DNA of 64,000 nt, from IMG/VR virus record IMGVR_UViG_3300023096_000002, positions 6,894 to 70,893 of that record; one strand, 5' to 3'. The notes beneath the pieces were generated by a model, which was not told the origin of the DNA, ran no database searches, and worked only from the letters and a program-made list of their open reading frames with translations. Within the stretch, counting starts at the first letter, position 1. Each line of letters begins with the position of its first letter. This document shows positions 8,909 to 60,090 of the stretch, piece after piece. The stretch is from a virus. Both the position numbers and the translations under genes were made by a program.

Positions 8909-8915
8909 GCGACCC

Positions 8916-9793: not shown

Positions 9794-9848
9794 AGGAGAA
9801 CGCAACCAAACCGAGGTTCAGCTGCTTCTATCCCTACACTAGAAAGGC

Positions 9849-10259: not shown

Positions 10260-10303
10260 GTTTCTGTTCCTTCAGAGTTTGCGGTTGGAGTTTGCGACCG
10301 GGA

Positions 10304-11809: not shown

Positions 11810-11839
11810 AAAAGGGGCTTCCTTCGAGTTGGTGTGGAA

Positions 11840-12028
11840 TTATTCAGTCAGGGACTTGGCGGCAGGTTTCTTCGCCGCAGGTTCCTGCTCAATATCCTGA
11901 TGGAAGTTGAGCAGACGTTCGATGTAAGCAGTGTGCTCGACATCAACATAGCGGTCCGTCGGGATCGGTTTGCCGCCGCGCGGAGCGGTAAAAGCAAGCC
12001 GACCGGGAACGGTCTTAACACGGATCAT
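11840..12028 (-). CDS. Small tail protein (DUF2635 / Mu gp38-like)
   Basis: MIRVKTVPGR..P..G..IP....V...AY..RLL...D pattern upstream of the sheath gene. Confidence 0.6.
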   Translation of the reverse strand: MIRVKTVPGRLAFTAPRGGKPIPTDRYVDVEHTAYIERLLNFHQDIEQEPAAKKPAAKSLTE

Positions 12029-27378: not shown

Positions 27379-28023
27379 TCATGCATACGCGACTTGCGAG
27401 GCGATTGCAAGAGGTTTCTTCGGCGCCATCGTCAGAAAACTTAACGGGACTTTGAGCGGCAAATCCTTCCCAAAAAGGCTGACCTGGACGGTAGCGAGGA
27501 CTCCATCAATAGCCAAGACCGGAACCTCATTCCCCTTCCATTCACCGCGAACAATCATCACGCGACTGCCCTTCTTGATCGACTTGTCGATGATTGGCGC
27601 GTGAGGCATGAGGTCGTTTTCAAGGATACGGAGCTCCGTGATAAGCGCTTCCGGAATGCGCACCGGGACGTCATGATTGCAGAGCACATTATAATATCCG
27701 CGCTGCCCGCGTATGTGATACCATTGCTGATCCGTACCGAGCATCTTGACGAAGATGTATCCTCCCAGCATCGGCCTGCGCACGACGACTTCTTGCTCTT
27801 TCGGCGGGAGTTTGCGCCTCCCTCGCGGGCGCGTAATATATTGGTCCATCGGGCAGTAGGCGACGATCTCCAGGGATGGGTCCTGTTGCGTCATCATCTC
27901 ACCCAAAAGGTTGATTGCTTGGGTGACCTCCACCTGGAGCTTACCAAAAGTGGAGACGCAGAACCATTGCGGAGTTGCGTGTATGGGGTATAATCCGGTA
28001 TTAATCCAGCTGAGTGTGCTCAC
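27379..28023 (-). CDS. NusG/RfaH-family transcription antitermination factor (NGN + KOW)
   Basis: WFCVST, AYCP and RPMLGGYIFV (NGN domain); KKGSRVMIVRGEWKG and VSLFGK (KOW domain). Confidence 0.85.
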   Translation of the reverse strand: MSTLSWINTGLYPIHATPQWFCVSTFGKLQVEVTQAINLLGEMMTQQDPSLEIVAYCPMDQYITRPRGRRKLPPKEQEVVVRRPMLGGYIFVKMLGTDQQWYHIRGQRGYYNVLCNHDVPVRIPEALITELRILENDLMPHAPIIDKSIKKGSRVMIVRGEWKGNEVPVLAIDGVLATVQVSLFGKDLPLKVPLSFLTMAPKKPLAIASQVAYA

Positions 28024-46570: not shown

Positions 46571-49412
46571 CAGGTATTTTCCTTGAAAGGTGGAGCATGG
46601 TCATACTCACGCCAGCATTGATCCACGAGTGCCGCATCCTCATGCGACAAGTCTACATATCCGTTACCGACGACGAAGCCGGTCCGGAAGGAATGTTCGA
46701 TCAATCCTTTGATCATTTTCTTTTGACCACTCGGGCTGGCATACTTCAACGCCGTAATGTGATCGTCCAGGATTTCGTCTAAGCTATCCGCCAAGTGACC
46801 TTCTCCCATGTATGCGGACGATCTGTTCCTCGAACAGTGCCAGCGCTTCTGTCTTGCTTTCCGCCCAATTGGTGATGCGCGTGAAGAAGGCTTCCTCCTC
46901 CATTGTAGTGATCCCCAAAAGGCTCATTATTTTGGGCCATGTCTCGCAGGTGACCCATTCATCTGGATCAACGTCAAAGAGCTGGCGTGCATGCCCGACG
47001 ATATCCGTGCGCAGGTTTTGATTGCAAAACAGCGGACTGTTTTTGCAAGCGTCCAGGAGCGCGTAGCAGTTGGCTTTTGTTGATGTCATGGTAAACCCCT
47101 TTCCCGGTCCACACTGGCATGGACCTGGATCAAAAGCAAGCCTAGCGACGCTCCTTAATGCCAAGGAACTTCACCAAGTCCTCGCGATACGCTTCCCGGC
47201 CGAACTCATGGCAGCGAAGAACGAGAGCTATGGCACTGTCCAGGTTAGACCAGCCATGTACCGATTGTCTGTCAAAATGAACGGTCGTGTAGCAGCCCGC
47301 GCCAGCCCGCGCCCGTAGCTCAGCACGGTTAGCATCGGCCCTAGCGGCGCTATTATGGTTGACATAATACTCAACTTTGACGCCAATAACGATCGTTTCC
47401 TGCTGGCACTGCTCGCGGTCTATTCCGTTGATGTTGATGTCCATGCTACACCTTCACATCAAATCCGTACTTGACGGATGTTTTGTTGAACTTGTCCCGG
47501 ATGCAGTCACCCAAATCCAGACCGATTTTGTTGGCGATGTTGAACAGGACAACGCCGCAATCCCCGAGCTCATCCTTCAAGCCCTGCTTGATTTCAGCCT
47601 CGGTCTTGCCGTCCGTTTTCAGCCCGAGCTCGATCCGGCGCAGGCGTTTGACGTTGCCGCAGAACTCACCGAACTCTTCGTTGAACTCCACGATGTTATC
47701 GCGCAAGGTCCATTGTCCTTTGGCCCAGAGATTGTCGCGGTCCGCGCAGGCCGACTGCACCGTCTTGAACGTGAGGTCGTAGGAAGGCGGCAAATCTGGA
47801 GTCCCTACTTCAACCGCCTGATTTTGAAGAGAGTATGGATTGCACCAAGCAGCGAGGTTTTGGTACGACAATCCACGCTCTTTCGGGAGCAAGTAATTGT
47901 CAAGGAATGGTGCGGCGTCACGGATCGCATCAAGGACATCATCCATTTCACGAAGCAGCCACGCGGCGTTGCTTTCGCGATCCTTGACCGGTACAGTCGG
48001 ATCATGACTGTCGAAACCAAAACGGTATGATTTACCAAGGGCGGTGAGCACCTCAGCAAACTCCTCCGTTAGGCGACCCATGACCTGCTTTTCGTCATGT
48101 CGATTGATGAATTTTTCGTGCATCAGCAGCGGCTTTCCTTTTTGCGTTCATCTCAATGATGAACTGTTCCTGAAATTCGTTCAGCTTTTCCCGAGACCAT
48201 TCCTTCTGGAGAAACCAGAGCGCGACGGTCTCTTGAATGATCTTACTGTGGACAATTCCGTCTTCGCCGACCTCAACACCCCGAACGGTGATGTTGCGAC
48301 CTGTCCTGAAGTTGCGGCGCATGGTGACGCCCTCCGTACGGAGGAAGCCAAGGTTCGTAGCGACAACGAACAGACTTACGCCATCGGTCATCAATTCAGG
48401 GCAGCGACTATCGCACCGGTCAGCGATGACGGAAGCTGTGACCGGTCGTCCTAGACCGGTCATCACCTGGACGATATGAATGCGCAGTTGTCCGTTGCGA
48501 TCCCGCTTGACCTTTTGGGCGTTCATCGTAATCGGCTCCGCTGCTCTTTCTGGATGGCCTTTAGCTTTTGTTTCATCTCGGCACGTTCACGAACTGTCAT
48601 GTCCCTCCAGTTGCGCTCAAGCTCTACTTCGTATTCACGCTCATCGTTCTCGAGCTGCCGGTCAGTGAACAAATGGTAGTGCGGCAAATCCTTATGCGGT
48701 ATGACGTCGGTCATAACTTACCTTTCTCCAGTGACGCCTTAATGGCCTTGAAACTTTCCATCAGGTCAACCAGTTTGCGAGCGCCGCTCTCGCTGACGGT
48801 CATCAAAGCGCTGAGACCAAAAGCGATATTGTTGTCGCAGTTTTCCATGATGAAGTCATATGAAGCCTTGTCCAATTCGACAACGGCATAGGGCGGATTG
48901 TTTGAGTTCTTTTCGGTCATGCTGGATACTTCTTCTCCAACTTTACGGTCAATTTTTCGATGCTATCGGCATAGGACAAAATCACTTCATCGGCATTCTT
49001 ATAGCCAGTGTGCTTGCGATCATCATCGCGCATCCTAGCGACGTCCAGAGCGAGCTGGTATGCCTGGAGCTTCATGGCTTTAACCGTGCCATTATGCTCC
49101 GCTAGAACGTCTTCAGGTATCCCTGCAATCAATTTCACGTTAGCCTCCTAGTGAACCACGGACCGCCCGCGCACCCGTTAGGTACGCTTTCCAGCTTGCG
49201 TCGGTGTTGGGAATGTTGAGCAGCTTGGCTGCAATGCGAATGCCGATCCAACCGTCATGGACGGTGACGCCTTCCCGCTCTACGCGATGCCAAAGGCGAT
49301 CGGCAGTTTCAAGTTCGAACTTTGCGGTGAGATTATTGTCTGGGTAGGTTTCGATGAAGTGATTTAGACCTTTAATATACGCTTGCTTTGCAGCGGTGAA
49401 ACGGCTGTTCAT
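46570..49412 (-). other. Further small minus-strand hypothetical genes
   Basis: 46570-46809, 46784-47089, 47142-47444, 48095-48526, 48523-48714, 48711-48920, 48917-49138 and 49140-49412, with ATGA coupling. Confidence 0.55.
47446..48123 (-). CDS. Tandem MazG-like nucleotide pyrophosphohydrolase
   Basis: Two EExxE...ExxD units: TEEFAEV..REMDDV and NEEFGEF..DELGDC. Confidence 0.75.
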   Translation of the reverse strand: MHEKFINRHDEKQVMGRLTEEFAEVLTALGKSYRFGFDSHDPTVPVKDRESNAAWLLREMDDVLDAIRDAAPFLDNYLLPKERGLSYQNLAAWCNPYSLQNQAVEVGTPDLPPSYDLTFKTVQSACADRDNLWAKGQWTLRDNIVEFNEEFGEFCGNVKRLRRIELGLKTDGKTEAEIKQGLKDELGDCGVVLFNIANKIGLDLGDCIRDKFNKTSVKYGFDVKV

Positions 49413-49606: not shown

Positions 49607-49670
49607 GTGCAACTTGAGCCAAAATGTGGACGGAAGGCCCGCCACAAGCTCATCAAAGGAAAACCCCAAC

Positions 49671-50534
49671 ATGGTTAAATCTCTTACCGCTGCTTCCAAG
49701 GCTGAACCCAAGGAAGTTGTCGTAACCGAACAAGATGCGAACGCTCTCGCATTGGCAGCTGAAGCGGAACTTTTCGACACTGGTGCTTCCACCGGCTTTG
49801 AAAACGTTACCGCCAAAGACCTGCTCATTCCGCGCATCACCATTCTGCAGGGCTTGAGCCCTCAGGTCACACGCGGCAAGCCGGAATTCAATCCGGACCT
49901 GCGTCCAGGCATGATCTATGACGTCGGCCTGACGGAAGTCTTCGAAGAAGCCATCCACGTTATTCCGGTTCACTTCTTCAAGCAGTGGCTTGAATGGGCT
50001 CCCCGGAACACTGGCAAGGGTCTCGTCGCTGTTCATGACAACGGCAGCATCCTGGATCAGACGGAAAAGGACGCCAAGAACAAGGACGTCCTGCCGAACG
50101 GGAACTACGTTTCCGAAACTGCGCAATTCTATGTCCTCAACCTGTCGGCACGGAACCGCAAGTCGTTCATCGCCATGACCAGCACGCAGCTCAAGAAGAG
50201 CCGGAGCTGGCTCACTCGCGCCCAGAACGTCATGATCCCTCGCGCTGATGGCACAGAGTTCCAGGCTCCGCTGTTCTACCATTCTTACATCCTCTCCACC
50301 GTGCCGGAAAGCAATGCCGAAGGCGCATGGGATGGCTGGAAGATCGAGACCGGTCCGAAGCTCACCGAGCTTGACAACTGGAAGCACATTCACAAGCTCA
50401 TCCTCGAGTTCCGCGAAAGCATCGACAAGGGCGAGGTCCAGTCGGACAAGTCGTCGCTTGAAGATGAAGTTTCCGGCGGTCGTGGCGGCGGCGGTCGCAG
50501 CGAAGGTCAGGCTGATACCGGGCAGGCAATGTAA
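49671..50534 (+). CDS. Phage ssDNA-binding/annealing-type protein
   Basis: DLLIPRITILQGLSPQV, WLEW and M.STQLKKSRSW motifs; acidic Gly-rich tail; start MVKSLT after AAGGA. Confidence 0.6.
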   Translation: MVKSLTAASKAEPKEVVVTEQDANALALAAEAELFDTGASTGFENVTAKDLLIPRITILQGLSPQVTRGKPEFNPDLRPGMIYDVGLTEVFEEAIHVIPVHFFKQWLEWAPRNTGKGLVAVHDNGSILDQTEKDAKNKDVLPNGNYVSETAQFYVLNLSARNRKSFIAMTSTQLKKSRSWLTRAQNVMIPRADGTEFQAPLFYHSYILSTVPESNAEGAWDGWKIETGPKLTELDNWKHIHKLILEFRESIDKGEVQSDKSSLEDEVSGGRGGGGRSEGQADTGQAM

Positions 50535-51184
50535 TGAGCCTGATCCCCGGACAAGCCTCAGACGAAGAGCTGTTCGATGGTGCGGGAGCTTCGGCTTCCG
50601 CACCAGTCATCGAGCGGCTGGTCGCCATGTGCAAGGAATGCGCCGAGCTTGAGGAAACTATTGAGAGCCTCAACGAAGCGCTGAAAGCCAATAGCGGCCG
50701 TTATCATCACCTGAAAACCAAGGCGCTCGTTGAGCTCATGGCGGAAGCTCAGGTGCCTGAATTTACCCATCTCGATCCCATGAGCAATCTTCCTGGGGTT
50801 AAGGTCAAGATCGCAGACTTCGTTTCCGGTAGCTTGCCGAAGGAAGAATACGATCGCGAGATTGCCATCCAGAAGCTGGTGGAAGCTGGCGGCGAAAAGC
50901 TGCTCACTGCGACCATCACAATGGACTTCCCCAAGTCTCTCCGCGATAAAGCTCTCGCCCTTTTTGGTGAACTCTTCAAGCAGTGGGACACGGAAGCCGA
51001 CGTCGAATTCAAGGAAGGCGTCCACGCGGCGACCCTCCAGGCGTTCGTCAGGGAAAAGCTCCGCAAGGGTGAAGAAGTTCCCTTCGAGGAGCTCGGCATT
51101 CATGTCGGGAAGGTCGCAAAAATCACACCAATCGGCAAGGATGGCAAGCGCCTGCGCAAGTCAACCTCTGCTACCGAGGAGTAA
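50534..51184 (+). CDS. Conserved phage replication-module protein
   Basis: Coiled coil plus VHAATLQAFVRE motif; coupled to the SSB-like gene. Confidence 0.55.
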   Translation: MSLIPGQASDEELFDGAGASASAPVIERLVAMCKECAELEETIESLNEALKANSGRYHHLKTKALVELMAEAQVPEFTHLDPMSNLPGVKVKIADFVSGSLPKEEYDREIAIQKLVEAGGEKLLTATITMDFPKSLRDKALALFGELFKQWDTEADVEFKEGVHAATLQAFVREKLRKGEEVPFEELGIHVGKVAKITPIGKDGKRLRKSTSATEE

Positions 51185-51189: not shown

Positions 51190-51873
51190 TTGGAAGAACG
51201 ACATAAAGAGCTGATGGAACGCCAACGGATTGACCGCTTCCTGCAGAACATGTTCGAAGTGGTCAATCAGTTTGGCAACATCAAGCGGTATAGCCGCGAT
51301 CATTTGATCAAGCCTGAAAACGATCTGGAGCACACCGGCTTCATGGTCATCTGGGCTTTGTTCGTCGGTCGCAAACTGCGCAACGAAGGCATCGGCATTG
51401 ACATGGAAGTGTTGCTCACACGCGCCACGGTCCATGACCTTGAGGAAAGCCTCACTGGTGACATCGCTCGTCCGACAAAGCACGCAAATGCTCGGGTCAG
51501 CGCCGCCTTCAAGGAAGTGGAACTCGCAGCCGTTACGCACTTGGAAAACTTTCTCGGCGTTAACTTCATGTACGACTGGGAGAGTGCCAAAAGCAATGAC
51601 CGAGAAGGCTGGATTATCAAGCTCGGGGACATGGCGGCAGTCGTCTACAAGACCATGATCGAAGTTTCGATGTATGGCAATAAGGGCTTTCTCCGCGTTG
51701 CGGAGGAGGTCAAAGTTGAGCTGCTCAAGTTGACCGGCTTCCTGAAGCAGAACGGCTTCCCGGAACTGCACTGGATACCGGAAGAACTGAGCGAGGTTCT
51801 TCACCGCGTTCACTACGGGGAAATTCAACACGGCGGTTTCTTCCGTGCTTTCGGGGAGCATCGTTATGGTTGA
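51190..51873 (+). CDS. HD-domain 5'-deoxynucleotidase (YfbR-like)
   Basis: IKRY..ENDLEH, VHDLEESLTGDI..PTK and IIKLGD motifs. Confidence 0.85.
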   Translation: MEERHKELMERQRIDRFLQNMFEVVNQFGNIKRYSRDHLIKPENDLEHTGFMVIWALFVGRKLRNEGIGIDMEVLLTRATVHDLEESLTGDIARPTKHANARVSAAFKEVELAAVTHLENFLGVNFMYDWESAKSNDREGWIIKLGDMAAVVYKTMIEVSMYGNKGFLRVAEEVKVELLKLTGFLKQNGFPELHWIPEELSEVLHRVHYGEIQHGGFFRAFGEHRYG

Positions 51874-53014
51874 TATCTTTTGCCACGGCGCGGAGATGCA
51901 TGTCGTCGTCCGTGACCGGCCGCACACGACCAAAATACTGAGAGCTTGGAAGCATTCCAGGCCGAACGATGAGACCAAGTCCATTGAAACCATCGCTGCG
52001 ATTGACGTACCGGTGAACGAAATGGACGACTTCATCCTGGAAATCTATGCGCCCATCATCGTCAGGGAAGTACTTTTTGGGCTCCGTGATCATGTTGCGT
52101 GGGCGCGTACCAGCCGCGTGGATGACCTTACTCAGTGGCCGATTTATCAGCCAAGTCTGTTCGGCTATGAAGCGGACATTCAGCAACTGATGGTCCAGAT
52201 GAAGCGGGATATGGTCGACGGCAATCCGCAGGACGACTTCCGCATGAACCTGCCATTGTGCTACATGACGCACTTCACCATGAAGATTACCCCGCGCACT
52301 CTCCTCAAGGTCATGGGCACACTGACCAAGGAAATTGCGCTGGCACCAGACACTCTCATCCGCAACATGTGGCGCGACTTGAAGAACCTTTTCAAGAGTG
52401 CCATTGCCGGTGGACCTTGGCAGGCTATCGGCGAAGTTGATGGCTTTGGCAGTGTTCCACTGGTGAACCGTGCCGGTATTGATCCAGTAGACCAGCCATC
52501 GGGTTTTCTCATTGGCGGTATGGTTGCAGCGCGGCTTGGGGCCGTACCATTGGCCTTACGCGCGCAACTTGTGCGCCACAGGCCCGTCAGTATACGGGAT
52601 GACTTGGTGCAATACCTGACCGCCAAGGGTATTACCCGATCCATCCGGAATACCCTTAATGTCGAGGTCGCGATGACGCAGGAAATGGCTACCAGCCTTG
52701 TTATCAAGCGCAATTGCTGGATCAGTCAAGATGACCTTTGGGCTCCAGTGCTCAAAGCTCTCAATTCAGCTATCGGCGGCGGGCATAAAGTAGCCGGTCC
52801 GATACTGCCCTGCAACGGCCGGAACGATTGCCCTATTGAACGCGACAACGTGTTGCGCTTTGAAGGCAAAGACCCCGCTCCGCCCTGCCCGATCTGGATG
52901 AAGATGAAGGGTCAACACTACACTTCACCGCAGATTGATCCGGCATATGCCTTCTCCAAGCGACGCCAAAATCCTGGATGGTGGCAAAACCGGATCGTCG
53001 ACAGCGAAGTCTAA
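51866..53014 (+). CDS. Divergent ThyX-like flavoprotein with duplicated domain
   Basis: APIIVREVL..LRDHVAWARTSR and QDDFRMNLP (N-half); VPLALRAQLVRHR and KRNCW..Q (C-half). Confidence 0.7.
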   Translation: MVDIFCHGAEMHVVVRDRPHTTKILRAWKHSRPNDETKSIETIAAIDVPVNEMDDFILEIYAPIIVREVLFGLRDHVAWARTSRVDDLTQWPIYQPSLFGYEADIQQLMVQMKRDMVDGNPQDDFRMNLPLCYMTHFTMKITPRTLLKVMGTLTKEIALAPDTLIRNMWRDLKNLFKSAIAGGPWQAIGEVDGFGSVPLVNRAGIDPVDQPSGFLIGGMVAARLGAVPLALRAQLVRHRPVSIRDDLVQYLTAKGITRSIRNTLNVEVAMTQEMATSLVIKRNCWISQDDLWAPVLKALNSAIGGGHKVAGPILPCNGRNDCPIERDNVLRFEGKDPAPPCPIWMKMKGQHYTSPQIDPAYAFSKRRQNPGWWQNRIVDSEV

Positions 53015-53039
53015 TCCCCTTTTGGTAAGGAACTATCAG

Positions 53040-53564
53040 ATGAGTACTGCTGACTACAAATACGACGTCTATATGGCTGGCCCGTTCTTCACGCCGGAAC
53101 AAAAAGCCACTATGGATCGCCTCAAAGCCATCCTCCTGCAGGAAGAACTACGGGTTTGTGATCCACGGGAACTGAACCCCGTACTTACGGACATGACTGA
53201 TGAGCAACGAAAGGCGTTCAGCAAGAAGGATATCTTCGACGCCAACGTTGTCGGTCTGCTCCGTAGCTGGTGCGTGATCGCCTGCATCGATGACCGGGAC
53301 ACCGGCACGAGCTGGGAGCTTGGATACGCCTACTGCCTCATGACACATCGTGACGGCGGGCGCGGTCCAATCATCACCGTCAGCGCGAACGGCTACGGCT
53401 GCAACGTGATGTTGAGCGAAGCCGCCGACGGACACTTCCCCACCCTTGAAGCTCTCGATCGTCGCATCATCCGTTTGGCGCGGCAGATCAAGGATCAGAC
53501 GGACGGCGGTGTTCTCAAGGACAGCGGCTTCTATGATGGAGCGTTGGCCGATGCAGTCGAGTGA
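53040..53564 (+). CDS. Nucleoside 2-deoxyribosyltransferase / DNPH1-MilB-like nucleotide N-glycosidase
   Basis: VYMAGPFF, DTGTSWELGYA and NVML motifs. Confidence 0.85.
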   Translation: MSTADYKYDVYMAGPFFTPEQKATMDRLKAILLQEELRVCDPRELNPVLTDMTDEQRKAFSKKDIFDANVVGLLRSWCVIACIDDRDTGTSWELGYAYCLMTHRDGGRGPIITVSANGYGCNVMLSEAADGHFPTLEALDRRIIRLARQIKDQTDGGVLKDSGFYDGALADAVE

Positions 53565-53769
53565 AGAATGGAAAGTTATCACCGTAGATAACTTCGCCCG
53601 CGAGAGCCATGCTGACCGTCTAATCTTTCAGAACGTTCATAGCGAGGAGTTTGCTAAGTTCATTGCTGATCAGCTTCAGGCTAAGTTCGGTGGTGAGCAG
53701 GCTTGGGATTTCTACACTCAACGCACGATGAGCGCTCGTCTGTGGCGCGGCATGGAGGACTTGATTTGA
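53551..53769 (+). CDS. Small hypothetical protein
   Basis: KVITVDNFARE; overlaps neighbours. Confidence 0.5.
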   Translation: MQSSEEWKVITVDNFARESHADRLIFQNVHSEEFAKFIADQLQAKFGGEQAWDFYTQRTMSARLWRGMEDLI

Positions 53770-54239
53770 CACACGCCCGCGTCGTAATCCTTCTCGACCT
53801 TGAAGGAACGGTCTGCAACAATGGCCATCGCGTGGAGCTGTATCAGGCTCAGGAGTGGGATGAGTATGCAGCGTTCTGCAAGAATGATATCCCGTACACG
53901 GACGTCATGGACCTGCTGAACAATCTCTGCGAAGATACTGACAATGTTGACGTCATTGTTATCAGCGATCGCAGCGATGAATATCTCATGGCGACCATTG
54001 ATTGGTTTGTCAAGTGGGGCGAGTTCGATGTGAAGAACTTTTACATGCGCTCCCGCTATGACATGCCCAAGACCAAGGAGCCTATCCTCAAGCTGGAACT
54101 ATTTGAGAAAATGAAGGTGGCGGAAGGTTATCCGGCTGGCACCGTCTTCATCGCCCTGGACGACAAGGATGACGTCTGTGAGGCATATCGTAACGCTGGC
54201 ATTTCATGCTGGCAAGTTCGGAATGGAGTAATATCATGA
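53766..54239 (+). CDS. HAD phosphatase (PNKP 3'-phosphatase-like)
   Basis: DLEGT, SDR, YMR, K and DDKDDVC..YR..GI.CWQV motifs; TTG start after GGAGGA. Confidence 0.8.
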   Translation: MTHARVVILLDLEGTVCNNGHRVELYQAQEWDEYAAFCKNDIPYTDVMDLLNNLCEDTDNVDVIVISDRSDEYLMATIDWFVKWGEFDVKNFYMRSRYDMPKTKEPILKLELFEKMKVAEGYPAGTVFIALDDKDDVCEAYRNAGISCWQVRNGVIS

Positions 54240-54955
54240 ATAAGAACGGTCAACAGGTTTGGATCGTTACCGGCTCATCGAGTGGTCTCGGAGCGGCAAT
54301 CTCCGATGTACTGACTAAAGCGTGCGGTTTCCACGTTGAAAAATGGGACCTGGACAACGGCATGGACGTCACCAAAGCGGAAGATGTCTATATGTTCATG
54401 GATGCTTACGTGGAGCACGGCGTCAAGATCGATGGCATTGTGAATTGCGCTGGCATCGCGAAGTTGGCATGGTTCAAGGACATCACTCAGGAAGACTACG
54501 ACGCGGTCTTTGATGTCAATTGCCGGTCTATCTTCAACATGGTTCAATCGGCCATCTTCAACGGAGTGTTCGACTACCGCCCGACGGTCGTCAACGTCAT
54601 CAGTACGGCCAGTCGGTTGCCGATGACAAACAGCTTCACCTATTGCGCGTCCAAGGCGGCGGCGGAAATGATGACCCGCCAGATGGCACGGGAGCTCATC
54701 AAGACCCACGGCATCACCGTTTTTGGTATCGCTCCGAACAAGCTCAAGAAGACCGGCATGACCGATCAAATCGATGAGCGAGTGCAGGAATTGCGCGGCT
54801 GGTCGGCTGAGGAAGCCAAGGGCTATCAGGAAGCGGGCAACGGGAACCTGGAATATACCGACCCGAACTCCGTCGCTGCCGTGCTCGGCTTCATGCTCAG
54901 CAAGCCAGAGTTCCACAAGTTCCAGAACGGCGCTATCATCCCGATGGGCGTCTGA
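54236..54955 (+). CDS. Short-chain dehydrogenase/reductase (SDR)
   Basis: TGSSSGLG, NCAG, catalytic S and YCASK motifs. Confidence 0.92.
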   Translation: MNKNGQQVWIVTGSSSGLGAAISDVLTKACGFHVEKWDLDNGMDVTKAEDVYMFMDAYVEHGVKIDGIVNCAGIAKLAWFKDITQEDYDAVFDVNCRSIFNMVQSAIFNGVFDYRPTVVNVISTASRLPMTNSFTYCASKAAAEMMTRQMARELIKTHGITVFGIAPNKLKKTGMTDQIDERVQELRGWSAEEAKGYQEAGNGNLEYTDPNSVAAVLGFMLSKPEFHKFQNGAIIPMGV

Positions 54956-54984
54956 ACTACACCAAAAGCTGAAAGGGACTACTT

Positions 54985-55485
54985 ATGAAATTGGATCAAT
55001 TGTGCGTGTACTGCGGAACTGAAGATGACGCAGACGACGCAAAGGTCACTCTCGGATTGCAGGATGCGGTCTGGGTTCGTGACGAAGTCCTTGGCTATGT
55101 GTCCGTCAAGGATCGTGCCGGTAACTGGACCACCGGCATCAGCGAAGGTATCCTCCAGTTCAATTATGATACTGGCATGGAATACGAGCTGCTGACCTAC
55201 ACCAGCGGACCTAACTGGCATGACCTGCATAACCTCAATCAGGAACGTGCTCGCGTCGGCCACGTAGGCTATCACCTGGAAGACGGCGAAGAGTTCCCGG
55301 AGCGTTGGCAGGAGCTGATGGTGCAGGAAATGTTCACCAGCCGTCACTCCAATCCGAAGGTGCTGGAAGCCAAGCGCAACTATCACTACCGGATTTACGA
55401 TACGGTCGATACCCTTGGTTACTATTCCAAGGTCATTCGCCGTCTCGGCCCGGACACTTCCTACCCATCGCCACTGAGGGGCTGA
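54985..55485 (+). CDS. VOC/glyoxalase-fold enzyme (epimerase/isomerase-like)
   Basis: LDQL, MEYELL.Y..G and HVGYH beta-alpha-beta-beta-beta pattern. Confidence 0.6.
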   Translation: MKLDQLCVYCGTEDDADDAKVTLGLQDAVWVRDEVLGYVSVKDRAGNWTTGISEGILQFNYDTGMEYELLTYTSGPNWHDLHNLNQERARVGHVGYHLEDGEEFPERWQELMVQEMFTSRHSNPKVLEAKRNYHYRIYDTVDTLGYYSKVIRRLGPDTSYPSPLRG

Positions 55486-55486
55486 C

Positions 55487-55882
55487 ATGACCAGCAAGAT
55501 AAACGAGAAGTTCAAGGAAGTTCCAGGTCCTGGAAACCGTGCAGAAAATGCCGGGGACATCCTGATCAATGGTGGCGTAACGTTCCAGGAGCGTCACAAG
55601 GTTTACGGGAACAACTTCCTCAAGGTCGGCGATATGTGCGTCGCCATGTTCCCGGAAGGCTTGACACTCAAGACCGCTGAAGACTTCATCAGGTTCGAGC
55701 TGTTCATGATGAAGACCGTGAAATTCAGCCGGTATGCGGAAAACTTCAGCAAGGGCGGTCATCAGGACAGCATTCACGATGACATGGTTTACAGCGCCAT
55801 GCTCGAGTTCGTTGATGGCGTTCTCAAGAATGGCATGAGCTATGTCATCACTCCGGTAGCTGATCCTGGAGCCATGAAATAA
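55487..55882 (+). CDS. DUF6378-like all-alpha protein (possible dNTP pyrophosphatase fold)
   Basis: ERHKVYG, M..VK.SR and HQDS..D..VY motifs. Confidence 0.55.
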   Translation: MTSKINEKFKEVPGPGNRAENAGDILINGGVTFQERHKVYGNNFLKVGDMCVAMFPEGLTLKTAEDFIRFELFMMKTVKFSRYAENFSKGGHQDSIHDDMVYSAMLEFVDGVLKNGMSYVITPVADPGAMK

Positions 55883-56421
55883 TGCTCACTCTCATCTATG
55901 ACACGGAAACCACTGACTTGATGAAGAACATGGGAATGCCGATCTCGGCGCAGCCCCATATCATCGAGTATTTTGGCCTGTCGGTTGATGAGAGTAGTGC
56001 AGAGCTGGCTGAGGTGGGAAGCCTCGGCCAGCTGATCAAGCCACCAAAAGCGGTGACTGACTTCACTACCAATCTGACCGGCATCAGCAATCCGATGCTC
56101 TGGGACAAGAAGAACTTTGAGTTCTATGCGCCCATGATCAAGGACCATATCGAAAAGCATGATCGCGTTGTAGCTCACAATGCGGCCTATGATAAAGACA
56201 TTATCAACACTGAGATGACACGTATCGGCATGACGGTCAATTGGCCGGAAGTCATCTGCACCGTTGAAATGACCCTGTGGATTAAGGGCTTCCGCTTGAA
56301 GCTCGGCGGTCTACACATCGAGCTTTTTGGTGAAGACTTTGCCAATAAGCACCGCGCTGAGCCGGACGTCCGCGCTCTATACCGCTGCTATGTGGAACTA
56401 CGCAAGAGGGATTGGATATGA
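55882..56421 (+). CDS. DEDDh 3'-5' exonuclease (DnaQ/epsilon-like)
   Basis: YDTETTD, AHNAAYD and HRAEPD motifs. Confidence 0.9.
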   Translation: MLTLIYDTETTDLMKNMGMPISAQPHIIEYFGLSVDESSAELAEVGSLGQLIKPPKAVTDFTTNLTGISNPMLWDKKNFEFYAPMIKDHIEKHDRVVAHNAAYDKDIINTEMTRIGMTVNWPEVICTVEMTLWIKGFRLKLGGLHIELFGEDFANKHRAEPDVRALYRCYVELRKRDWI

Positions 56422-56777
56422 AGAAGGCAGGCACTCCACTCGCCAAACTCCTTGAAGAGTGCAAAGAAACCTGCCTCAAGGATGACGTGAAACGGTTCTA
56501 TTTCATCATGCCGGTCGGTATGATTTCTGAGCGAATGGATCGTGCCTTCGGTTTCAGCCAGTCCGGTGGCGTCGGTGTGATTTGTGCTCGCGGCTTGCGG
56601 CAGATGACATATGCCAAGCCATTGGACATGTCCATCGTGTTCGTCAATCAAGAAGATGATCCGGCGCAAACCTTTGCCGGTCTAAGGAATATTCGCGTTC
56701 ACATTTTCAATGAGTGCTCCACTACATGCGCTCAGAAATGGGAACTGGCTTATCGGCGCATAGGTGACCTCACATGA
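56418..56777 (+). CDS. Hypothetical protein
   Basis: ATGA-coupled on both sides. Confidence 0.5.
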   Translation: MKKAGTPLAKLLEECKETCLKDDVKRFYFIMPVGMISERMDRAFGFSQSGGVGVICARGLRQMTYAKPLDMSIVFVNQEDDPAQTFAGLRNIRVHIFNECSTTCAQKWELAYRRIGDLT

Positions 56778-57850
56778 AAATTATGACCGGATACAGCTTC
56801 CGCCACTCTAGCGGACATCTCGTAGACGTTATCAAGCGACTGATGGAAGTTAAGTATCCGGTCGCGCCCATCAGTGACTTCTGCAGCACCTTCGGTTATG
56901 TCCGCTGGAAGAAGCTTTGCGACAAGGCCAAACTGCGGCCGATGTACGGAGTAACCATTCCGGTGACTGCGAGCATGGAAGCCAAGAAGCCGGTGACTGC
57001 AGAGTGGACGTTCTTCGCCAAGGACAATCTGATCGGCATGAACAACATCCTGGAAATGGCAACAAATCAGTTCCGCTACACTCCGTTGATCAGCTACAAG
57101 CAAGCCATGGAAGCGCAGGACTGCATCATCATCGCAGGTAGCAACAGCCTGCTCACGGAGTTCGAACCACGTGAAAACATCTTTTGCTCGCTCAATCCGT
57201 CAACTAGCCGGGGCTTCTACATGTCAGCCAAGTCGGCTGGGCATAGGTTCATTGCGGCGTCTGAAAACCGATACACTAATCCGCAGGACCGCGTCCTTTA
57301 CGAAACTATCATGGGGCGCAAGTCGAACACTCAGAGCTATCCGCAATGGATACTCTCCGATGAGGAATGGTTTGAGTCCGTTAAGAAAAGCGGTGCTACG
57401 GAAGAGGCAAGAAATACTGCTCGCGCTGTTTGGAGTGACGTCATCTCCATTTGCACGGCGAAACTGGCGGAGGGTTCGCTACTCTCCCCGGATAAACCAG
57501 AGACGCTCGAACAGATTTGCATCAAGAATGCGCCCCGATTGGGGGTCGACCTTAGCGATCCTATCTACGCAGCGCGGCTGGAGCGTGAAATCGAACTCAT
57601 ATACGAGAAAGAGTTCGAGGACTATTTCTACATCGTGGGCGATATGGTCCGTTATGCTAAATCTCAAATGATGGTCGGCGGCGGACGCGGCAGCTCCTCC
57701 GGAAGCCTCGTCTGCTACTTACTTGAGATCACCACCATCGACCCCATTCCTTACGACTTGCTGTTCGAGCGGTTCATTGACATTAACCGTGGCGGCTTCA
57801 TCTGGAACAAAGACTTTACCATGCTGATGGACAGCATCTGCGAGGAATGA
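56774..57850 (+). CDS. dnaE: DNA polymerase III alpha, N-terminal part (PHP domain to GRGS region)
   Basis: TGYSF, ISD, RLEREI..I....F.DYF and GRGSSSGSLVCYLLEITTIDP..YDLLFERF motifs. Confidence 0.88.
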   Translation: MKIMTGYSFRHSSGHLVDVIKRLMEVKYPVAPISDFCSTFGYVRWKKLCDKAKLRPMYGVTIPVTASMEAKKPVTAEWTFFAKDNLIGMNNILEMATNQFRYTPLISYKQAMEAQDCIIIAGSNSLLTEFEPRENIFCSLNPSTSRGFYMSAKSAGHRFIAASENRYTNPQDRVLYETIMGRKSNTQSYPQWILSDEEWFESVKKSGATEEARNTARAVWSDVISICTAKLAEGSLLSPDKPETLEQICIKNAPRLGVDLSDPIYAARLEREIELIYEKEFEDYFYIVGDMVRYAKSQMMVGGGRGSSSGSLVCYLLEITTIDPIPYDLLFERFIDINRGGFIWNKDFTMLMDSICEE

Positions 57851-60090
57851 ATATGAAGTTTCGCGGCTTTGAGATTACCCCCGAACACATCGCCCTTTTT
57901 GGTGAAAAGGAAATCAGGCGTGAAATCCATGCCATGAAGGCTACGCCGGAGATAGCCCAAAAAGCTGAGTGGATGCTAAAGAATGGCGTCAAGCTGAACA
58001 TTGATACCGGGAGCATCCTGCTCTACATCCTCGGCATTCAGACGGTATTCCCGGCGATCGCCCAGCCTATGGACTACCTCAACGACTTGCCCGACGTCGA
58101 CATTGACTTCAGTGACACCAAGCGCCATATGGTGTTCCAGTACATGGCAGATCAATATGGGAGCGACCGTGTAGCCAAGCTAGGTTCGGTTGCCGTGTAT
58201 AAGCCGCGCAGCGCCATCAAGGAAGCCGCAGGGGCATTGGACATACCGCCATGGAAAACGAGCCCCGTACTGGACAGCTTGATCCAAACCTCATCAGGCG
58301 ATGCGCGTGCTCTTCAAGCCATTGAGGACACCTTCAGCAAGACGGAAGCCGGTAAAAAGCTGATTGCCGAGTATCCTGAGATGGGTATTGCCAAGCGCAT
58401 GGAAGGTCATCCGCGTAACAGTTCGACCCATGCCGCTGGCTTGCTGCTCACCGACCGCCCCATCCGTGAATACGTCGCTACCGACATGCGGACCGGCACG
58501 GTCTACGCCGACAAGAAGGACGCCGAAGTCCTCAACCTGCTCAAGATTGACGCGCTCGGCCTTACTCAGCTCAGCGTGTTCGAGGATACCCTTGAGCTTG
58601 CTGGTAAGTCATTGGACTTCCTCAACACCATTCCGCATGATGATCCGCTGGCGTTCAAGATACTCAACGACAAGAACTTCTCCGGCGTGTTCCAGTTTGA
58701 AGGGAACGCTCTGCAGCGCGTCACCAGTGACATCGTCGTCAAGGATATTAACGACATTTTCACCATCACCGCTCTCGGTCGTCCGGGTCCGCTATCCTCG
58801 GGCTCCGCTGCCATCTGGGTTCGCCGCCATAACGGTGAAGAAAAGGTAGCGTATCCGCATCCTATCTTTGAGGAGTATCTGGAGAGCACTTTGGGGATGG
58901 TCGTGTTCCAGGAACAGATCATGCGCATCGTCCGTGAGCTTGGCGGCTTGAGCTGGAAGGATGTGACCACGCTCCGCAAGGCAATGTCCAAGTCGTTGGG
59001 CCGTGAGTTCTTTGACCAGTTCGGTGACCCATTCAAGAAAGCCATCATCGCAAAGGGCGTTGATCCAAACGTAGCCTTCAAAGTCTGGGATGACCTCTGC
59101 AACTTCGGCGCTTACGGCTTCAACCGCTCGCACTCCGTCGCCTACGGGATCATCAGCTATCAGTGCTGCTATCTCAAGGCTCACTATCCGCTAGAGTTTG
59201 CGGCTGCTACATTGTCGCACAAGAAGGATATCAACGCTCAGCTTATCTCCCTGCGCGAGATGGCGAAGGAGGGTGTTCCTTATGTTGCAGCTCACATCGA
59301 CCACTCCACGGACCGCTGGTATGTGAAGCATATCGACGGCGTCAAGACCCTGATCGGTCCGGTGCAGAACGTCATCGGGATTGGCCCAAAAATGGTTCAG
59401 GAGGTTATCTCCTGCCGCGCTCGTGGAGAGAAACTTCCGGCCCGCGTCGCCAAGCTTTTGGCTGATCCAAAGACCAAGATTGACAGTCTGCAGCCAATTG
59501 AGAACGCCTTCCATCGCGTTATGCCTTATCCGCATGAACGCAACATCATGTCCACGCCGACCAAGGTTAATGACATACAGGTCGACGGAACAGAAGGTCG
59601 TAGCTTTTTGGTGTTTGTCACTCCAATGAAGATCAACCCGAAAGATGAAAACGAAGATATCAACGTCGCCAAGCGCGGCTATGCTTTCAAAGGACCACAC
59701 CTCTCCCTCGGCATGCACATCGCAGATGACAGTGGAAGCATCTATGCCAAGGTCAGTCGTTTTGACTATGATAAGATTGCAAAATCTATTATCGATCGTG
59801 GTCGTCCGGGCAAATCACTTTATGCGATAAAGGGCACTGTCCCTAAAGACTTCCGCATGCTGAGCATCCAAATGGTCCGCTACATTGGCGACATGGATGA
59901 GAAACATCATGCGAAAATGGAGGCAGAACGCTTGGCTTTCGAGGCGGCTTGTGCCAAAGAGGTAGCTGACGCCCTCGCGGCGAAAAATGGGGTAATCAAT
60001 GACGGAACGACCATCGGGGAAGGCGGTACTGGAGGAAGTATCGCGGATAACAGCGCGGATAACAGGCCGAAGCTCAGGACTATTGGTTAA
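57847..60090 (+). CDS. dnaE: DNA polymerase III alpha, catalytic part
   Basis: PDVDIDF, STHAAG, LKIDALGL, GVFQFE, FQEQIM and YGFNRSHSVAY..YLKAHYP motifs. Confidence 0.93.
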   Translation: MNMKFRGFEITPEHIALFGEKEIRREIHAMKATPEIAQKAEWMLKNGVKLNIDTGSILLYILGIQTVFPAIAQPMDYLNDLPDVDIDFSDTKRHMVFQYMADQYGSDRVAKLGSVAVYKPRSAIKEAAGALDIPPWKTSPVLDSLIQTSSGDARALQAIEDTFSKTEAGKKLIAEYPEMGIAKRMEGHPRNSSTHAAGLLLTDRPIREYVATDMRTGTVYADKKDAEVLNLLKIDALGLTQLSVFEDTLELAGKSLDFLNTIPHDDPLAFKILNDKNFSGVFQFEGNALQRVTSDIVVKDINDIFTITALGRPGPLSSGSAAIWVRRHNGEEKVAYPHPIFEEYLESTLGMVVFQEQIMRIVRELGGLSWKDVTTLRKAMSKSLGREFFDQFGDPFKKAIIAKGVDPNVAFKVWDDLCNFGAYGFNRSHSVAYGIISYQCCYLKAHYPLEFAAATLSHKKDINAQLISLREMAKEGVPYVAAHIDHSTDRWYVKHIDGVKTLIGPVQNVIGIGPKMVQEVISCRARGEKLPARVAKLLADPKTKIDSLQPIENAFHRVMPYPHERNIMSTPTKVNDIQVDGTEGRSFLVFVTPMKINPKDENEDINVAKRGYAFKGPHLSLGMHIADDSGSIYAKVSRFDYDKIAKSIIDRGRPGKSLYAIKGTVPKDFRMLSIQMVRYIGDMDEKHHAKMEAERLAFEAACAKEVADALAAKNGVINDGTTIGEGGTGGSIADNSADNRPKLRTIG

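Follow-up and report, generated by a model that had tools for sequence, protein, structure and literature searches.

A divergent ThyX-like protein encoded with HD nucleotidase and N-glycosidase genes: a candidate nucleotide-modification module of the SP-15 kind in a soil phage

The locus at positions 51190-55882 of the window, the 64,000-nucleotide stretch of viral DNA that was analysed, is best explained as a composite of two units rather than as a single pathway, the first of which would modify dUMP at C5 before replication, as a module of the SP-15 kind; this reading, taken as a whole, has in our judgment about an even chance of being correct. According to it, the genes for an HD-domain phosphohydrolase, a ThyX-like protein (ThyXL) and an NDT-family enzyme would form a conserved three-gene nucleotide-pool module that has taken the place of the canonical ThyX found in related DnaE phages, and the homologues of ThyXL and NDT in phages SP-15, YerA41 and Carin-5 would be a signature common to the known pentyl-type C5-uracil phages. 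The four genes that follow (HAD, SDR, VOC-like and DUF6378-like) would constitute a block of older origin, linked with the DnaQ-DnaE replication module and not specifically belonging to the pathway.

All seven enzyme genes named in the sequence-only reading are real and lie tightly packed on the + strand within 51190-55882, as judged from the ORF list of the window, and an eighth, small ORF (53551..53769, 72 residues) can be added to them. The triad comprises the HD protein, a YfbR-like 5'-deoxynucleotidase (51190..51873), ThyXL (51866..53014, with a start that agrees with the 382-residue database protein P0001) and an NDT-family N-glycosidase or transferase (53040..53564). Beyond the small ORF are encoded a HAD phosphatase of the PNKP-phosphatase type (53766..54239), a FabG-like short-chain dehydrogenase/reductase (SDR, 54236..54955), a VOC/glyoxalase-fold-like protein (54985..55485) and a DUF6378-like small helical protein (55487..55882). 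With gene starts refined, by inference, from the ORF list and start-site evidence, overlaps are found between HD and ThyXL (8 nt), NDT and the small ORF (14 nt), the small ORF and HAD (4 nt), HAD and SDR (4 nt), and the DUF6378-like gene and DnaQ (1 nt), and gaps separate ThyXL from NDT (25 nt), SDR from VOC (29 nt) and VOC from the DUF6378-like gene (1 nt). The small ORF, which has an ATG at 53551 with GGAG upstream, matches phrog_21874 (E 2.8e-09), but its only tblastn match is in the window's own genome and it is not conserved among related loci; the HAD gene probably begins with a TTG at 53766 that follows GGAGGA.

Downstream lie the phage's own DnaQ-like 3'-5' exonuclease (55882..56421, + strand; phrog_192, E 2e-26) and DnaE-type polymerase (56774..60090, + strand), as had been claimed. 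The latter is divided into two ORFs (56774-57850 and 57847-60090; phrog_405, E 2.2e-52 and 2.1e-136), compared with a single ORF of 935-1246 residues in related loci (ORFs not cut by the locus end). The two upstream genes encode Pam3 gp34-like (49614..50534, + strand; PF23977, E 2.4e-48; phrog_2402; tblastn matches in 35 of 82 loci) and DUF7307 or Pam3 gp33-like (50534..51184, + strand; PF23984, E 2e-17; phrog_2378) proteins, and the label 'SSB-like' given earlier to the second of these was not confirmed. Searches of the window genome found neither a dUTPase nor a dCMP deaminase, and an SP15-type PolA-UDG polymerase is absent from it, the polymerase being DnaE. These negative results, like those for a GT2 glycosyltransferase and a thymidylate kinase, count against the modification reading.

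The Pfam ThyX family PF02511 is matched by ThyXL over residues 110-163 only (54 residues; E 4.6e-06, 27.0 bits against a cut-off of 24.8). With 382 residues, compared with about 220-250 for canonical ThyX, the protein begins with a complete ThyX domain (approximately residues 7-196); a second ThyX-like domain, which is degenerate, comes next, and the C-terminus is formed by a helical extension that bears Cys residues. The ThyX fold is confirmed at the level of the predicted structure: the N-terminal half of the AF2 model (pLDDT 90.4) superimposes on M. tuberculosis ThyX with a VIA Z score of 14.1 (rmsd 2.4 Å, 181 residues aligned). Equivalents of Arg 147 and Arg 174 of T. maritima ThyX (TM0449) are retained as R126 and R144, whereas the RHR motif, unlike that of canonical ThyX, has been lost from domain 1 and occurs only in the degenerate domain 2 (R237-H238-R239). 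A homodimer modelled with FAD scored 0.84, whereas none of three controls exceeded 0.00, the mark used being one reached in calibration by 20 of 30 one-chain-pair structures and 1 of 23 single-chain structures, although this pass may be a memory effect, since solved ThyX tetramers exist. The three homodimer runs concur in at least 94% of contacts, with a partner pLDDT of at least 87, and the modelled interface contains the invariant residues W28, S31, R32, D47, P49, E52, R74, W79, R237 and R239; in this placing of conserved residues at the interface the predicted oligomer resembles canonical ThyX, and a dimer of two-domain chains would rebuild a ThyX-like tetramer. A further structural match, to PolB of polyoxin biosynthesis (a UMP/dUMP C5-methylase, PDB 4p5a; Z 13.2 and 5.4 for the N- and C-terminal halves, respectively), is to an enzyme of ThyX fold that serves to modify a nucleotide at C5 and not to supply dTMP, although PolB, in contrast to the two-domain ThyXL, is a single-domain protein that performs a one-carbon transfer (according to the PDB entry title) and had no NDT partner in the comparison.

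The HD protein belongs to the YfbR-like family PF12917 (E 4.4e-19, 69.3 bits against a cut-off of 25.9) and also matches phrog_7076, 'dATP triphosphohydrolase' (E 9.7e-14). The nearest solved structure is E. coli 5'-deoxynucleotidase YfbR (2paq, E 8.5e-07), in an alignment that takes in the HD residues and the E..GD stretch after them. The NDT protein matches PF05014 (E 2.5e-15) with the catalytic Glu motif present, and its closest solved match is the N-deoxyribosyltransferase 6evs (E 6.9e-05), with which its DTGT-WELG residues are aligned; over 23 homologues Y11, A13, P15, D87, G89, T90, E93, G95 and M124 are invariant, and N122 is nearly so.

The coupling of these three genes is best seen in related metagenome loci from IMG/VR, in which NDT occurs together with ThyXL in 79 of 79 cases, usually directly downstream, with a median distance of -4 nt from the ThyXL end to the NDT start (within 150 nt in 70 of 79). 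This constant coupling distinguishes ThyXL from canonical ThyX. HD is present in 74 of the 79, and the five loci that lack it all have ThyXL no further than 266 nt from the locus start. When the set was dereplicated at 50% ThyXL identity, 25 clusters remained, all with NDT and 20 with HD. Of the 73 loci with both genes, 34 place HD upstream of ThyXL and 39 place it downstream, which indicates that the triad stays together despite rearrangement. No canonical ThyX was found in the 79 loci or the window by tblastn with the ThyX proteins of Luteibacter phage Pluto and E. coli phage WFC (E <= 0.01).

These data bear on the explanation that ThyXL simply supplies dTMP, being a divergent but conventional flavin-dependent thymidylate synthase, while HD and NDT salvage or balance deoxynucleosides from host DNA breakdown and the DNA is canonical. 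ThyXL could indeed be the phage's dTMP synthase, since it is the sole thymidylate-synthase homologue of the window genome, in which no other Thy1 or ThyA was found, and it occupies the canonical ThyX slot of the relatives Pluto and WFC. The retained equivalents of the dUMP-binding arginines agree with such a role, as does the similarity of the NDT protein to true nucleoside deoxyribosyltransferases, for which salvage fits as well as sugar release. However, tblastn (E <= 1e-3) detected NDT in none of the phage records with the same replication block and canonical ThyX, in contrast to its presence in all 79 ThyXL loci, and the only member that a pattern scan recovered from 185,579 species genomes is on one 76-kb contig of a MAG, an odd distribution for a housekeeping enzyme. 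We consider ordinary dTMP supply an unlikely explanation.

Among 50,697 phage records, tblastn detected ThyXL in only seven, namely those of YerA41, GN1, phiXF1, Carin-5, GXN1 and SP-15 (two records), and window-type NDT in only 10, five of which are among these seven; the NDT homologue of YerA41, gp086, was identified by local comparison (E 2e-8). Two of the other phages with NDT, Vibrio Va2 and 150E35-1, encode a diverged ThyXL adjoining it (hhalign probability 98.6 and 98.7%). The genes are contiguous in GXN1 (NDT-HD-ThyXL), adjacent in phiXF1 (ThyXL-NDT), arranged as HD-ThyXL-NDT in 150E35-1 and both present, as ThyXL and NDT, in YerA41 and Carin-5. The search for the gene set in other phages, including SP-15, which the sequence-only reading had suggested as a check, thus has a positive outcome for the core, found in SP-15, GXN1, phiXF1, 150E35-1, YerA41 and Carin-5.

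SP-15 DNA contains 5-(4',5'-dihydroxypentyl)uracil (PMC5977210), while in YerA41 and Carin-5 a linker of 88 or 104 Da, phosphate and sugars are attached to thymidine (PMC12686479). A pentyl-type C5 substituent is described for three of these phages (PMC12686479, PMC5977210). All six cultured phages detected by tblastn carry, or are candidates for, thymidine hypermodification, proven for three in the accounts consulted, which also counts against ordinary dTMP supply. In SP-15, NDT (gene 127), a hypothetical gene, SDR (gene 129) and the Thy1-like 'thymidylate synthetase' gene 130 lie in that order within 3.2 kb, and both ThyXL (pairwise E 1.5e-14) and NDT (E 1e-9) are homologous to those of the window. 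A second Thy1 gene, the ordinary gp9, is present in SP-15 (PMC5977210), so that dTMP synthesis there does not require ThyXL (gp130), a further point against simple dTMP supply. According to titles cited in PMC5977210, synthesis of the SP-15 base precedes replication and yields a nucleoside triphosphate, and the base takes up label from ribose. There are also differences, in that SP-15 ThyXL belongs to another subclade and most Cys residues are missing from it, and the RHR motif reads RDH in the first domain and RQH in the second domain of that subclade, with the consequence that flavin binding is not assured across the ThyXL family; the SP-15 NDT, at 316 residues, is twice as long as that of the window; and SP-15 is described as having a PolA-type polymerase and a sugar-nucleotide gene cluster, where the window has DnaE. 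YerA41 and Carin-5 DNA resisted standard sequencing (PMC12686479), whereas the window phage and its 79 relatives were assembled from ordinary metagenomes; any modification here must accordingly be less obstructive, and the ready assembly also speaks for canonical DNA. The one public sequencing run that contains the window phage is its probable source and is stored as contigs. A literature search found no paper tying the ThyXL, NDT or HD genes to the SP-15-type base.

Within the two-unit reading, the first unit could operate as follows. The HD enzyme, from its family membership, would dephosphorylate dNMPs, and the NDT enzyme, from its family and its catalytic Glu, would cut the N-glycosidic bond of what is presumably a deoxynucleoside or deoxynucleotide to give 2-deoxyribose or its 5-phosphate in the aldehyde form, the two acting together in freeing deoxyribose. 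Canonical ThyX takes its carbon from methylene-tetrahydrofolate; ThyXL, with reduced flavin, would instead join the aldehyde carbon to C5 of dUMP, with reduction of the adduct. The product, a 5-(hydroxylated pentyl)-dUMP, would then be phosphorylated and incorporated into phage DNA, substituting for some or all of the thymine, and HD may also drain dTMP. By our own reasoning, the deoxyribose skeleton would lead to a 3',4',5'-triol and the SP-15 base lacks the 3'-OH, so that an extra deoxygenation step would be needed.

Pool-clearing hydrolases are usual in thymidine-hypermodified phages, which counts in favour of a one-carbon variant, in which ThyXL would make 5-hydroxymethyl-dUMP or another C5 product derived from methylene-tetrahydrofolate, HD and NDT would only destroy competing dTMP/dT or clean the pool, and any longer side chain would come from other genes. 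This would accord with the hypothesis of Kropinski et al. that SP-15 gp130, for which we propose pentose attachment, is a hydroxymethyluridylate synthase and that the side chain is made by genes 146-155 (PMC5977210), and with the start of all known thymidine hypermodification pathways at 5-hmdUMP (PMC8989533, PMC12686479). Against it, downstream tailoring genes were not detected in the window genome (no GT2 glycosyltransferase and no thymidylate kinase were found), the universal coupling of an N-glycosidase, and not merely a phosphatase, is left unexplained, and the ribose-label title cited in PMC5977210 points to a pentose origin. We consider this variant improbable.

The second unit differs in its distribution. 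The family names given to the seven proteins stand by Pfam match for HD, ThyX, NDT, HAD (PF25109, E 6e-18) and SDR (PF00106, E 1.2e-30), and by protein-atlas look-alikes only for VOC and DUF6378. The VOC-like protein matches no Pfam or PHROG family, and its VOC identity is a lead, suggested by its likeness to Glyoxalase_4 clusters of the ESM Atlas (features 0.92, structure TM 0.72); it has a homologue in Pluto, PLUTO_00820 (E 4e-13). The DUF6378-like protein, with no Pfam match at E <= 0.1, matches the C-terminal part of PHROG 4889 (E 6.5e-18), resembles DUF6378 clusters (Atlas features 0.93) and aligns with the C-terminus of PLUTO_00800 (E 5e-20), and in the 'polynucleotide kinase' genes of relatives a DUF6378-like part is fused to a HAD domain. 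Within the 79 IMG/VR loci the DUF6378-like gene is present in 71, SDR in 21, VOC-like in 16 and HAD in 14. The cultured phages Pluto (whose SDR is 41.6% identical to that of the window) and WFC carry the HAD/DUF6378-SDR-VOC block with its gene order unchanged, next to a canonical ThyX and before DnaQ-DnaE, and the second unit is therefore not specific to the first.

This distribution speaks against the original proposal that all seven genes form one pathway, in which the sugar phosphate set free by the glycosidase would be remodelled by VOC and SDR before its attachment by ThyXL, while HD, DUF6378-like and MazG proteins would clear away competitors. The genes are contiguous and co-oriented, an SDR is also encoded near ThyXL in SP-15 and Carin-5, and a reductase could, by our reasoning, serve the required 3'-deoxygenation. 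However, SDR homologues occur in 160 phage records, against seven for ThyXL, and pairwise comparison of the SDRs from the window, SP-15 and Carin-5 gave no significant similarity (E 0.24 and 5.5 for the window SDR against the other two), while SDR is absent from all three of phiXF1, GXN1 and 150E35-1. The MazG gene does exist (47446-48123, - strand; PF03819, E 5.9e-06), but lies outside the cluster and has a homologue in 0 of 82 compared loci. Such a seven-gene scheme is, in consequence, very improbable.

The combination proposed for the first unit has parallels elsewhere. In the MilA/MilB and BcmA/BcmB pairs of nucleoside-antibiotic pathways, a thymidylate-synthase homologue is paired with an NDT-like nucleotide N-glycosidase, the same logic of a C5-modifier with an NDT-superfamily glycosidase as in the window, although those synthases are ThyA-type enzymes, and the pairs have CMP as substrate and set free the modified base, whereas in the window the freed sugar would be the useful product. 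The 2-aminoadenine phages have DatZ, an HD dATPase, and MazZ with PurZ as a pool-editing set, in which, as here, an HD hydrolase adjoins the replacement-nucleotide enzyme inside the replication module, but for a purine and with another synthase family rather than for a pyrimidine. The three-enzyme set of this soil phage, common to the few known pentyl-uracil phages, is thus a testable candidate for making a long-unexplained base.

The gene cluster at 51190-55882 (+) lies in a complete virus record of 70,893 bp with direct terminal repeats, of which the window covers 64 kb, and the only public run that holds this phage genome is a leaf-litter metagenome, probably its source, stored as contigs. 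The cluster comprises eight ORFs in one orientation which, with refined starts, overlap by 1-14 nt or are separated by gaps of 1-29 nt. The seven family names proposed for these genes in the sequence-only reading all hold, five of them through Pfam: a YfbR-like phosphohydrolase (HD, 51190-51873; PF12917, E 4.4e-19, 69.3 bits versus a threshold of 25.9), the 382-residue ThyX-fold protein ThyXL (51866-53014), whose weak Thy1 match is confined to residues 110-163 (PF02511, E 4.6e-06, 27.0 bits versus a gathering threshold of 24.8), the NDT-family protein (53040-53564; PF05014, E 2.5e-15, 57.1 bits versus a threshold of 28.8), a HAD protein of the PNKP type (Pfam E 6e-18) and an SDR (Pfam E 1.2e-30). 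The VOC-like protein is named from Atlas look-alikes only, and the DUF6378-like protein from PHROG 4889 together with the Atlas. DnaQ and then the DnaE polymerase follow the cluster, and the neighbor formerly described as SSB-like is actually a DUF7307/Pam3 gp33-like protein.

Both small enzymes flanking ThyXL carry the catalytic motifs of their families. The metal-binding stretch of HD (vHDleEsltGDiarPtK) aligns with that of YfbR (yHDasEvltGDlptPvK), and NDT contains the catalytic Glu within D-x-G-T-x-x-E-x-G as well as an N-terminal Y-x-A-x-P-F-F, with residues E93, D87, G89, T90, G95, Y11, A13 and P15 invariant across 23 homologues. The catalytic stretch aligns with DTGTAWELG of the nucleoside transferase 6evs, the sole significant relative of NDT among solved structures (E 6.9e-05); no DNPH1- or MilB-type chain among those structures matched it at E <= 1, and NDT may nevertheless have an activity of that type.

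A model of ThyXL (AF2, pLDDT 90.4) was built from an alignment of 31 of 53 homologues, picked for diversity and extent of contig. In this model residues 7-196 form a full ThyX domain with an alpha/beta fold, superposing on M. tuberculosis ThyX (2af6) with Z 14.1 and an rmsd of 2.4 Å over 181 residues, and the Foldseek matches listed for the protein are all ThyX or PolB (best E 1.2e-06). The C-terminal half, modeled separately (residues 199-382, pLDDT 88.2), gave no Foldseek match at E <= 0.001 (best 0.04), the matches listed being all ThyX or Thy1; among 48,161 chains compared with it without preselection, five reached Z >= 5, all of them ThyX/PolB (best Z 6.8, rmsd 3.5, 115 residues aligned), and the first chain of another kind followed at Z 3.9. 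We therefore read this half, from the model, as a degenerate second ThyX-like domain with a helical extension. Because hhalign shows no internal repeat in the sequence (residues 1-190 versus 191-310, probability 0.7%, E 0.081), the second domain is an assignment from structure only.

The active-site residues of ThyXL are divided across the two domains. The catalytic domain of ThyX carries the motif RHR(x)7-8S, which has no match in domain 1 of ThyXL, where R74-D75-H76...S83-R84 is found instead; domain 1 retains an S-R pair, and domain 2 retains R-x-Q and RHR (237-239, RQH in the SP-15 subclade). The dUMP-binding R147 and R174 of the T. maritima enzyme correspond, in a HMMER alignment to 5iot, to the invariant R126 and R144 of ThyXL, the former being replaced by Lys in the SP-15 subclade. 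Such complementary decay would be expected if a fused pseudo-dimer retained one composite site. A homodimer modeled with FAD scored 0.84, whereas the highest-scoring of three controls reached 0.00, with contact agreement across runs of at least 94%, partner pLDDT of at least 87 and invariant residues at the predicted interface; in calibration the score was passed by 20/30 true pairs and 1/23 single chains, and the pass of ThyXL may reflect structures memorized by the predictor, since solved ThyX tetramers exist. Four cysteines (C284, C316, C322 and C341) are invariant in the 31-sequence alignment, which represents the subclade of the window. An essential catalytic role as Fe-S or Zn ligands was considered for them and rejected: YerA41 and GXN1 lack all four, SP-15 has one only and Carin-5 a partial set, and we accordingly assign them no catalytic role.

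The ThyXL family is extensive and nearly confined to viruses, with 600, 420 and 197 clusters at 50% identity for E <= 0.001, <= 1e-10 and <= 1e-30, respectively. A pattern scan of 185,579 species genomes returned one locus, on a 76-kb contig in a MAG, and beyond this single contig no bacterial or biosynthetic-cluster homologue that would name the chemistry was found in those genomes. Two longer family members, the database proteins P0137 and P0050, were checked as possible fusions of ThyXL to HD or NDT and proved to be neither: P0137 begins with a DUF559 endonuclease, and the N-terminus of P0050 has no Pfam match and is distinct from the HD protein. In the metagenomic P0137 the DUF559 endonuclease is fused to, or was called jointly with, ThyXL, and in YerA41 such an endonuclease lies immediately 5' of the ThyXL gene (YerA41_080, L001 7169-7933); the arrangement resembles that of a homing endonuclease directed at ThyXL.

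The genetic coupling of ThyXL to NDT is tight. A single-sequence search with ThyXL retrieved no related loci, and an alignment-based profile scan of IMG/VR retrieved 79, in which gene presence was scored by tblastn with the proteins of the window. NDT is present in all 79 and HD in 74, followed by DUF6378-like (71), DnaQ (68), the N-terminal part of DnaE (60), SDR (21), VOC-like (16) and HAD (14); in each of the five loci scored without HD, ThyXL lies no more than 266 nt from the beginning of the locus. Dereplication at 50% ThyXL identity, with the window, YerA41 and phiXF1 included, left 25 clusters, of which 25 contain NDT, 20 HD, 9 SDR and 7 VOC-like. The median distance from the ThyXL stop to the NDT start is -4 nt, and it is at most 150 nt in 70/79 loci (counted with the YerA41, phiXF1 and Pluto rows excluded). 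HD changes sides: of the 73 loci that contain both genes, 34 have it upstream of ThyXL and 39 downstream. Genes for replication, namely a UvrD helicase, an AEP primase and a ligase, also recur in the neighborhood. MazG, which had been counted as a pathway member, occurs in none of the 79 loci; the window protein concerned (47446-48123, (-)) resembles MazG twice, matching phrog_4856 over residues 10-68 and PF03819 over residues 148-215, and has no tblastn homologue in any of 82 compared loci.

The same partnership is found in cultured phages. By tblastn, ThyXL occurs in 7 of 50,697 phage records (YerA41, vB_Yru_GN1, phiXF1, Carin-5, GXN1 and, with two records, SP-15) and the NDT type of the window in 10. 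SP-15 has the order NDT (gene 127), gene 128, SDR (gene 129), ThyXL (gene 130), and GXN1 the order NDT, HD, ThyXL; in phiXF1 NDT comes after ThyXL, in YerA41 the two are gp081 (ThyXL) and gp086 (NDT), and in Carin-5 they are 11 kb apart. Diverged ThyXL proteins also occur in two Vibrio phages, 150E35-1 (384 aa, between HD and NDT; hhalign probability 98.7%) and Va2 (adjoining NDT; 98.6%). A YfbR-like HD is present in four of the five genomes tested, namely YerA41, phiXF1, SP-15 and Carin-5, and not in Va2. Two of these NDT genes go under another label or none: YerA41_086 (L001 11380-11916) is labeled 'mannosyltransferase' yet matches the NDT of the window (E 2e-8) as a homologue of that family, and the GXN1 gene (L086 4881-5369) is without any annotation. 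SP15_127 (L084 3998-4948) encodes 316 aa with a Pfam NDT domain at residues 6-108, and the NDT of the window aligns to approximately residues 159-295 (tblastn), so that the protein may be a tandem NDT. Directly 3' of the HD-ThyXL-NDT triad, 150E35-1 encodes an NTP pyrophosphohydrolase, a cytidylyltransferase-like protein and a DXD glycosyltransferase (L091 5829-9964), which may serve to decorate the linker and would then recommend this phage for testing.

The remaining genes of the cluster form a second unit. In Pluto (Luteibacter) and WFC (E. coli) the gene order is canonical ThyX, with 254 and 267 aa respectively, then a 'polynucleotide kinase', an SDR, a protein of 182 or 183 aa, DnaQ and DnaE. 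This conserved block of cultured myophages of ~60-72 kb extends over 6471-13348 in Pluto (L083) and 5301-11874 in WFC (L088), and its equivalent in the window over 53766-60090. The Pluto 'kinase' gene matches the DUF6378-like protein of the window, and the profile of its family, PHROG 4889, includes both a HAD and a DUF6378-like segment; in the window, where the 'polynucleotide kinase' is split, no P-loop kinase segment was seen. The 182-aa Pluto protein is a homologue of the VOC-like protein, and its 183-aa WFC counterpart is known by position only. SDR homologues occur in 160 phage records, including Wifcevirus, Serratia MyoSmar-like and Xanthomonas Carpasina-like phages. By tblastn, ThyXL and the NDT type of the window are absent from Pluto, WFC and the other listed SDR-bearing records, and ThyX of the Pluto and WFC type, searched with both proteins, is absent from all 79 loci and from the window.

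By gene content, the triad has thus replaced ThyX ahead of an older block, and the SDR and VOC-like proteins of the window are not assignable to the new pathway. The sequence-only reading had joined all seven genes in one pathway, with VOC and SDR remodeling a sugar phosphate that ThyXL attaches to pyrimidine C5. The gene cluster it described is confirmed, and its interpretation is supported in part, for the core idea of a ThyX homologue acting with an N-glycosidase; the single seven-gene pathway is not supported, given that the block stands beside a canonical ThyX in Pluto and WFC and that SDR and VOC-like genes are infrequent among the loci. In cultured phages of E. coli, Serratia and Xanthomonas, the HAD-SDR-VOC-DUF6378 block accompanies ThyX-DnaQ-DnaE as a unit of its own, no less enigmatic than the triad. 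An SDR common to the pentyl-base phages was also considered and rejected, the SDRs beside ThyXL in SP-15 and Carin-5 having no significant similarity to that of the window or to one another (window versus SP-15, E 0.24; window versus Carin-5, E 5.5; SP-15 versus Carin-5, E 23), and no SDR was found in phiXF1, GXN1 or 150E35-1. Within the block of the window, HAD motif I (53766-53800) reads D-L-E-G-T in translation, with Glu at the position where a second Asp is usual in HAD phosphatases, and DnaE is encoded by two ORFs (56774-57850 and 57847-60090; 358 and 747 aa) with a 4-nt overlap. DnaE ORFs of related loci that are uncut by the locus end are single (935-1246 aa); the two-ORF form could be genuine, or it could stem from a frameshifting insertion or from misassembly. 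Elsewhere the window encodes a collagen-repeat protein, probably a fiber (24571-25776, (-); PF01391, E 1.3e-16), and a NusG-like protein (27379-28023, (-); PF02357, E 4.1e-10).

Three of the cultured phages that carry ThyXL and NDT have a pentyl-type substituent at C5 of thymidine. Dihydroxypentyluracil has been known since 1972. In SP-15, more than half of the thymine is replaced by 5-(4',5'-dihydroxypentyl)uracil, to which glucose and phosphoglucuronolactone are attached (passages of PMC5977210), and in YerA41 and Carin-5 thymidine bears an 88- or 104-Da linker, phosphate and sugars, the linker pathway being described as undeciphered in a 2025 paper (PMC12686479). The SP-15 base is synthesized as a nucleoside triphosphate and incorporates ribose label, to judge from the titles of Walker and Mandel (1978; via PMC5977210). 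In 2018 gp130 of SP-15, its ThyXL, was proposed to be a hydroxymethyluridylate synthase and the side chain was ascribed to genes 146-155, with genes 127 and 129 not discussed in the passages concerned (PMC5977210). No publication that connects ThyX-like or NDT genes with the pentyl base emerged from our literature search, nor any on GXN1; annotations of these genes may exist in the supplements to the reports on SP-15 and Carin-5. The proposal that a ThyX homologue and an N-glycosidase make an SP-15-like, sugar-derived base has thereby gained real comparative support from SP-15 and the other triad phages, at the level of gene content.

A plausible course of reaction can be outlined. HD would convert dNMPs to deoxynucleosides, from which NDT would free deoxyribose by breaking the glycosidic bond; were NDT to act on nucleotides instead, the product would be deoxyribose-5-phosphate, and the phosphate of the linker would thereby be explained. 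The reduced flavin of ThyXL would then bind the sugar aldehyde at N5, giving a flavin-sugar adduct comparable to that in UDP-galactopyranose mutase, and C5 of dUMP would attack this adduct, with reduction to follow. In ThyX, flavin N5 forms an adduct with the methylene unit (excerpts of PMC8989533). The SP-15 base would further need 3'-deoxygenation, a step to which no gene is tied. We tentatively propose, as a possibility somewhat short of an even chance, that ThyXL is a new flavoenzyme, a ThyX-derived two-domain C5-alkyltransferase that reductively couples 2-deoxyribose or 2-deoxyribose 5-phosphate, as the open-chain aldehyde freed on site by its obligate NDT partner, to dUMP, so that one deoxynucleotide is broken up for the five-carbon side chain of another.

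Several observations speak against a pentyl-type base in the window phage. ThyXL may do no more than serve this phage as its thymidylate synthase: neither a second Thy1 nor a ThyA was found in the genome, where the Thy1 match of ThyXL itself scores 20.7 bits in a six-frame search, below the PF02511 cut-off. A dUTPase and a dCMP deaminase were likewise looked for and not found. The family also assembles easily from metagenomes. Neither a glycosyltransferase nor a thymidylate kinase was found in the genome, with no match to PF00535, the sole glycosyltransferase family searched genome-wide, and no glycosyltransferase or sugar-nucleotide Pfam match among 20 early-region and neighboring ORFs. Finally, the window phage shares the ThyXL and NDT genes of the SP-15-type hypermodification system; its replication genes are DnaQ and DnaE, the latter polymerase being used by many phages of the ThyXL family, and it lacks the SP15-like PolA polymerase with a UDG domain that characterizes SP-15-type systems (PMC13697223).

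If the C5-alkyltransferase reading of ThyXL is true, it would explain the origin of dihydroxypentyluracil. No biosynthetic enzymes have yet been assigned to the SP-15 side chain or to the YerA41 and Carin-5 linkers. The two- or three-gene signature common to these phages makes the question bench-testable with three small soluble proteins, and dividing the cluster into two units guards against over-reading it. Hypermodified DNA is relevant to evasion of restriction and CRISPR, to sequencing bias and to enzymes for C5-functionalized nucleotides, and the signature would flag likely hypermodified genomes in metagenomes, here 79 IMG/VR loci and 600 protein clusters. On the C5-alkyltransferase reading, pentyl-type hypermodified thymine would occur in hundreds of uncultured phage lineages.
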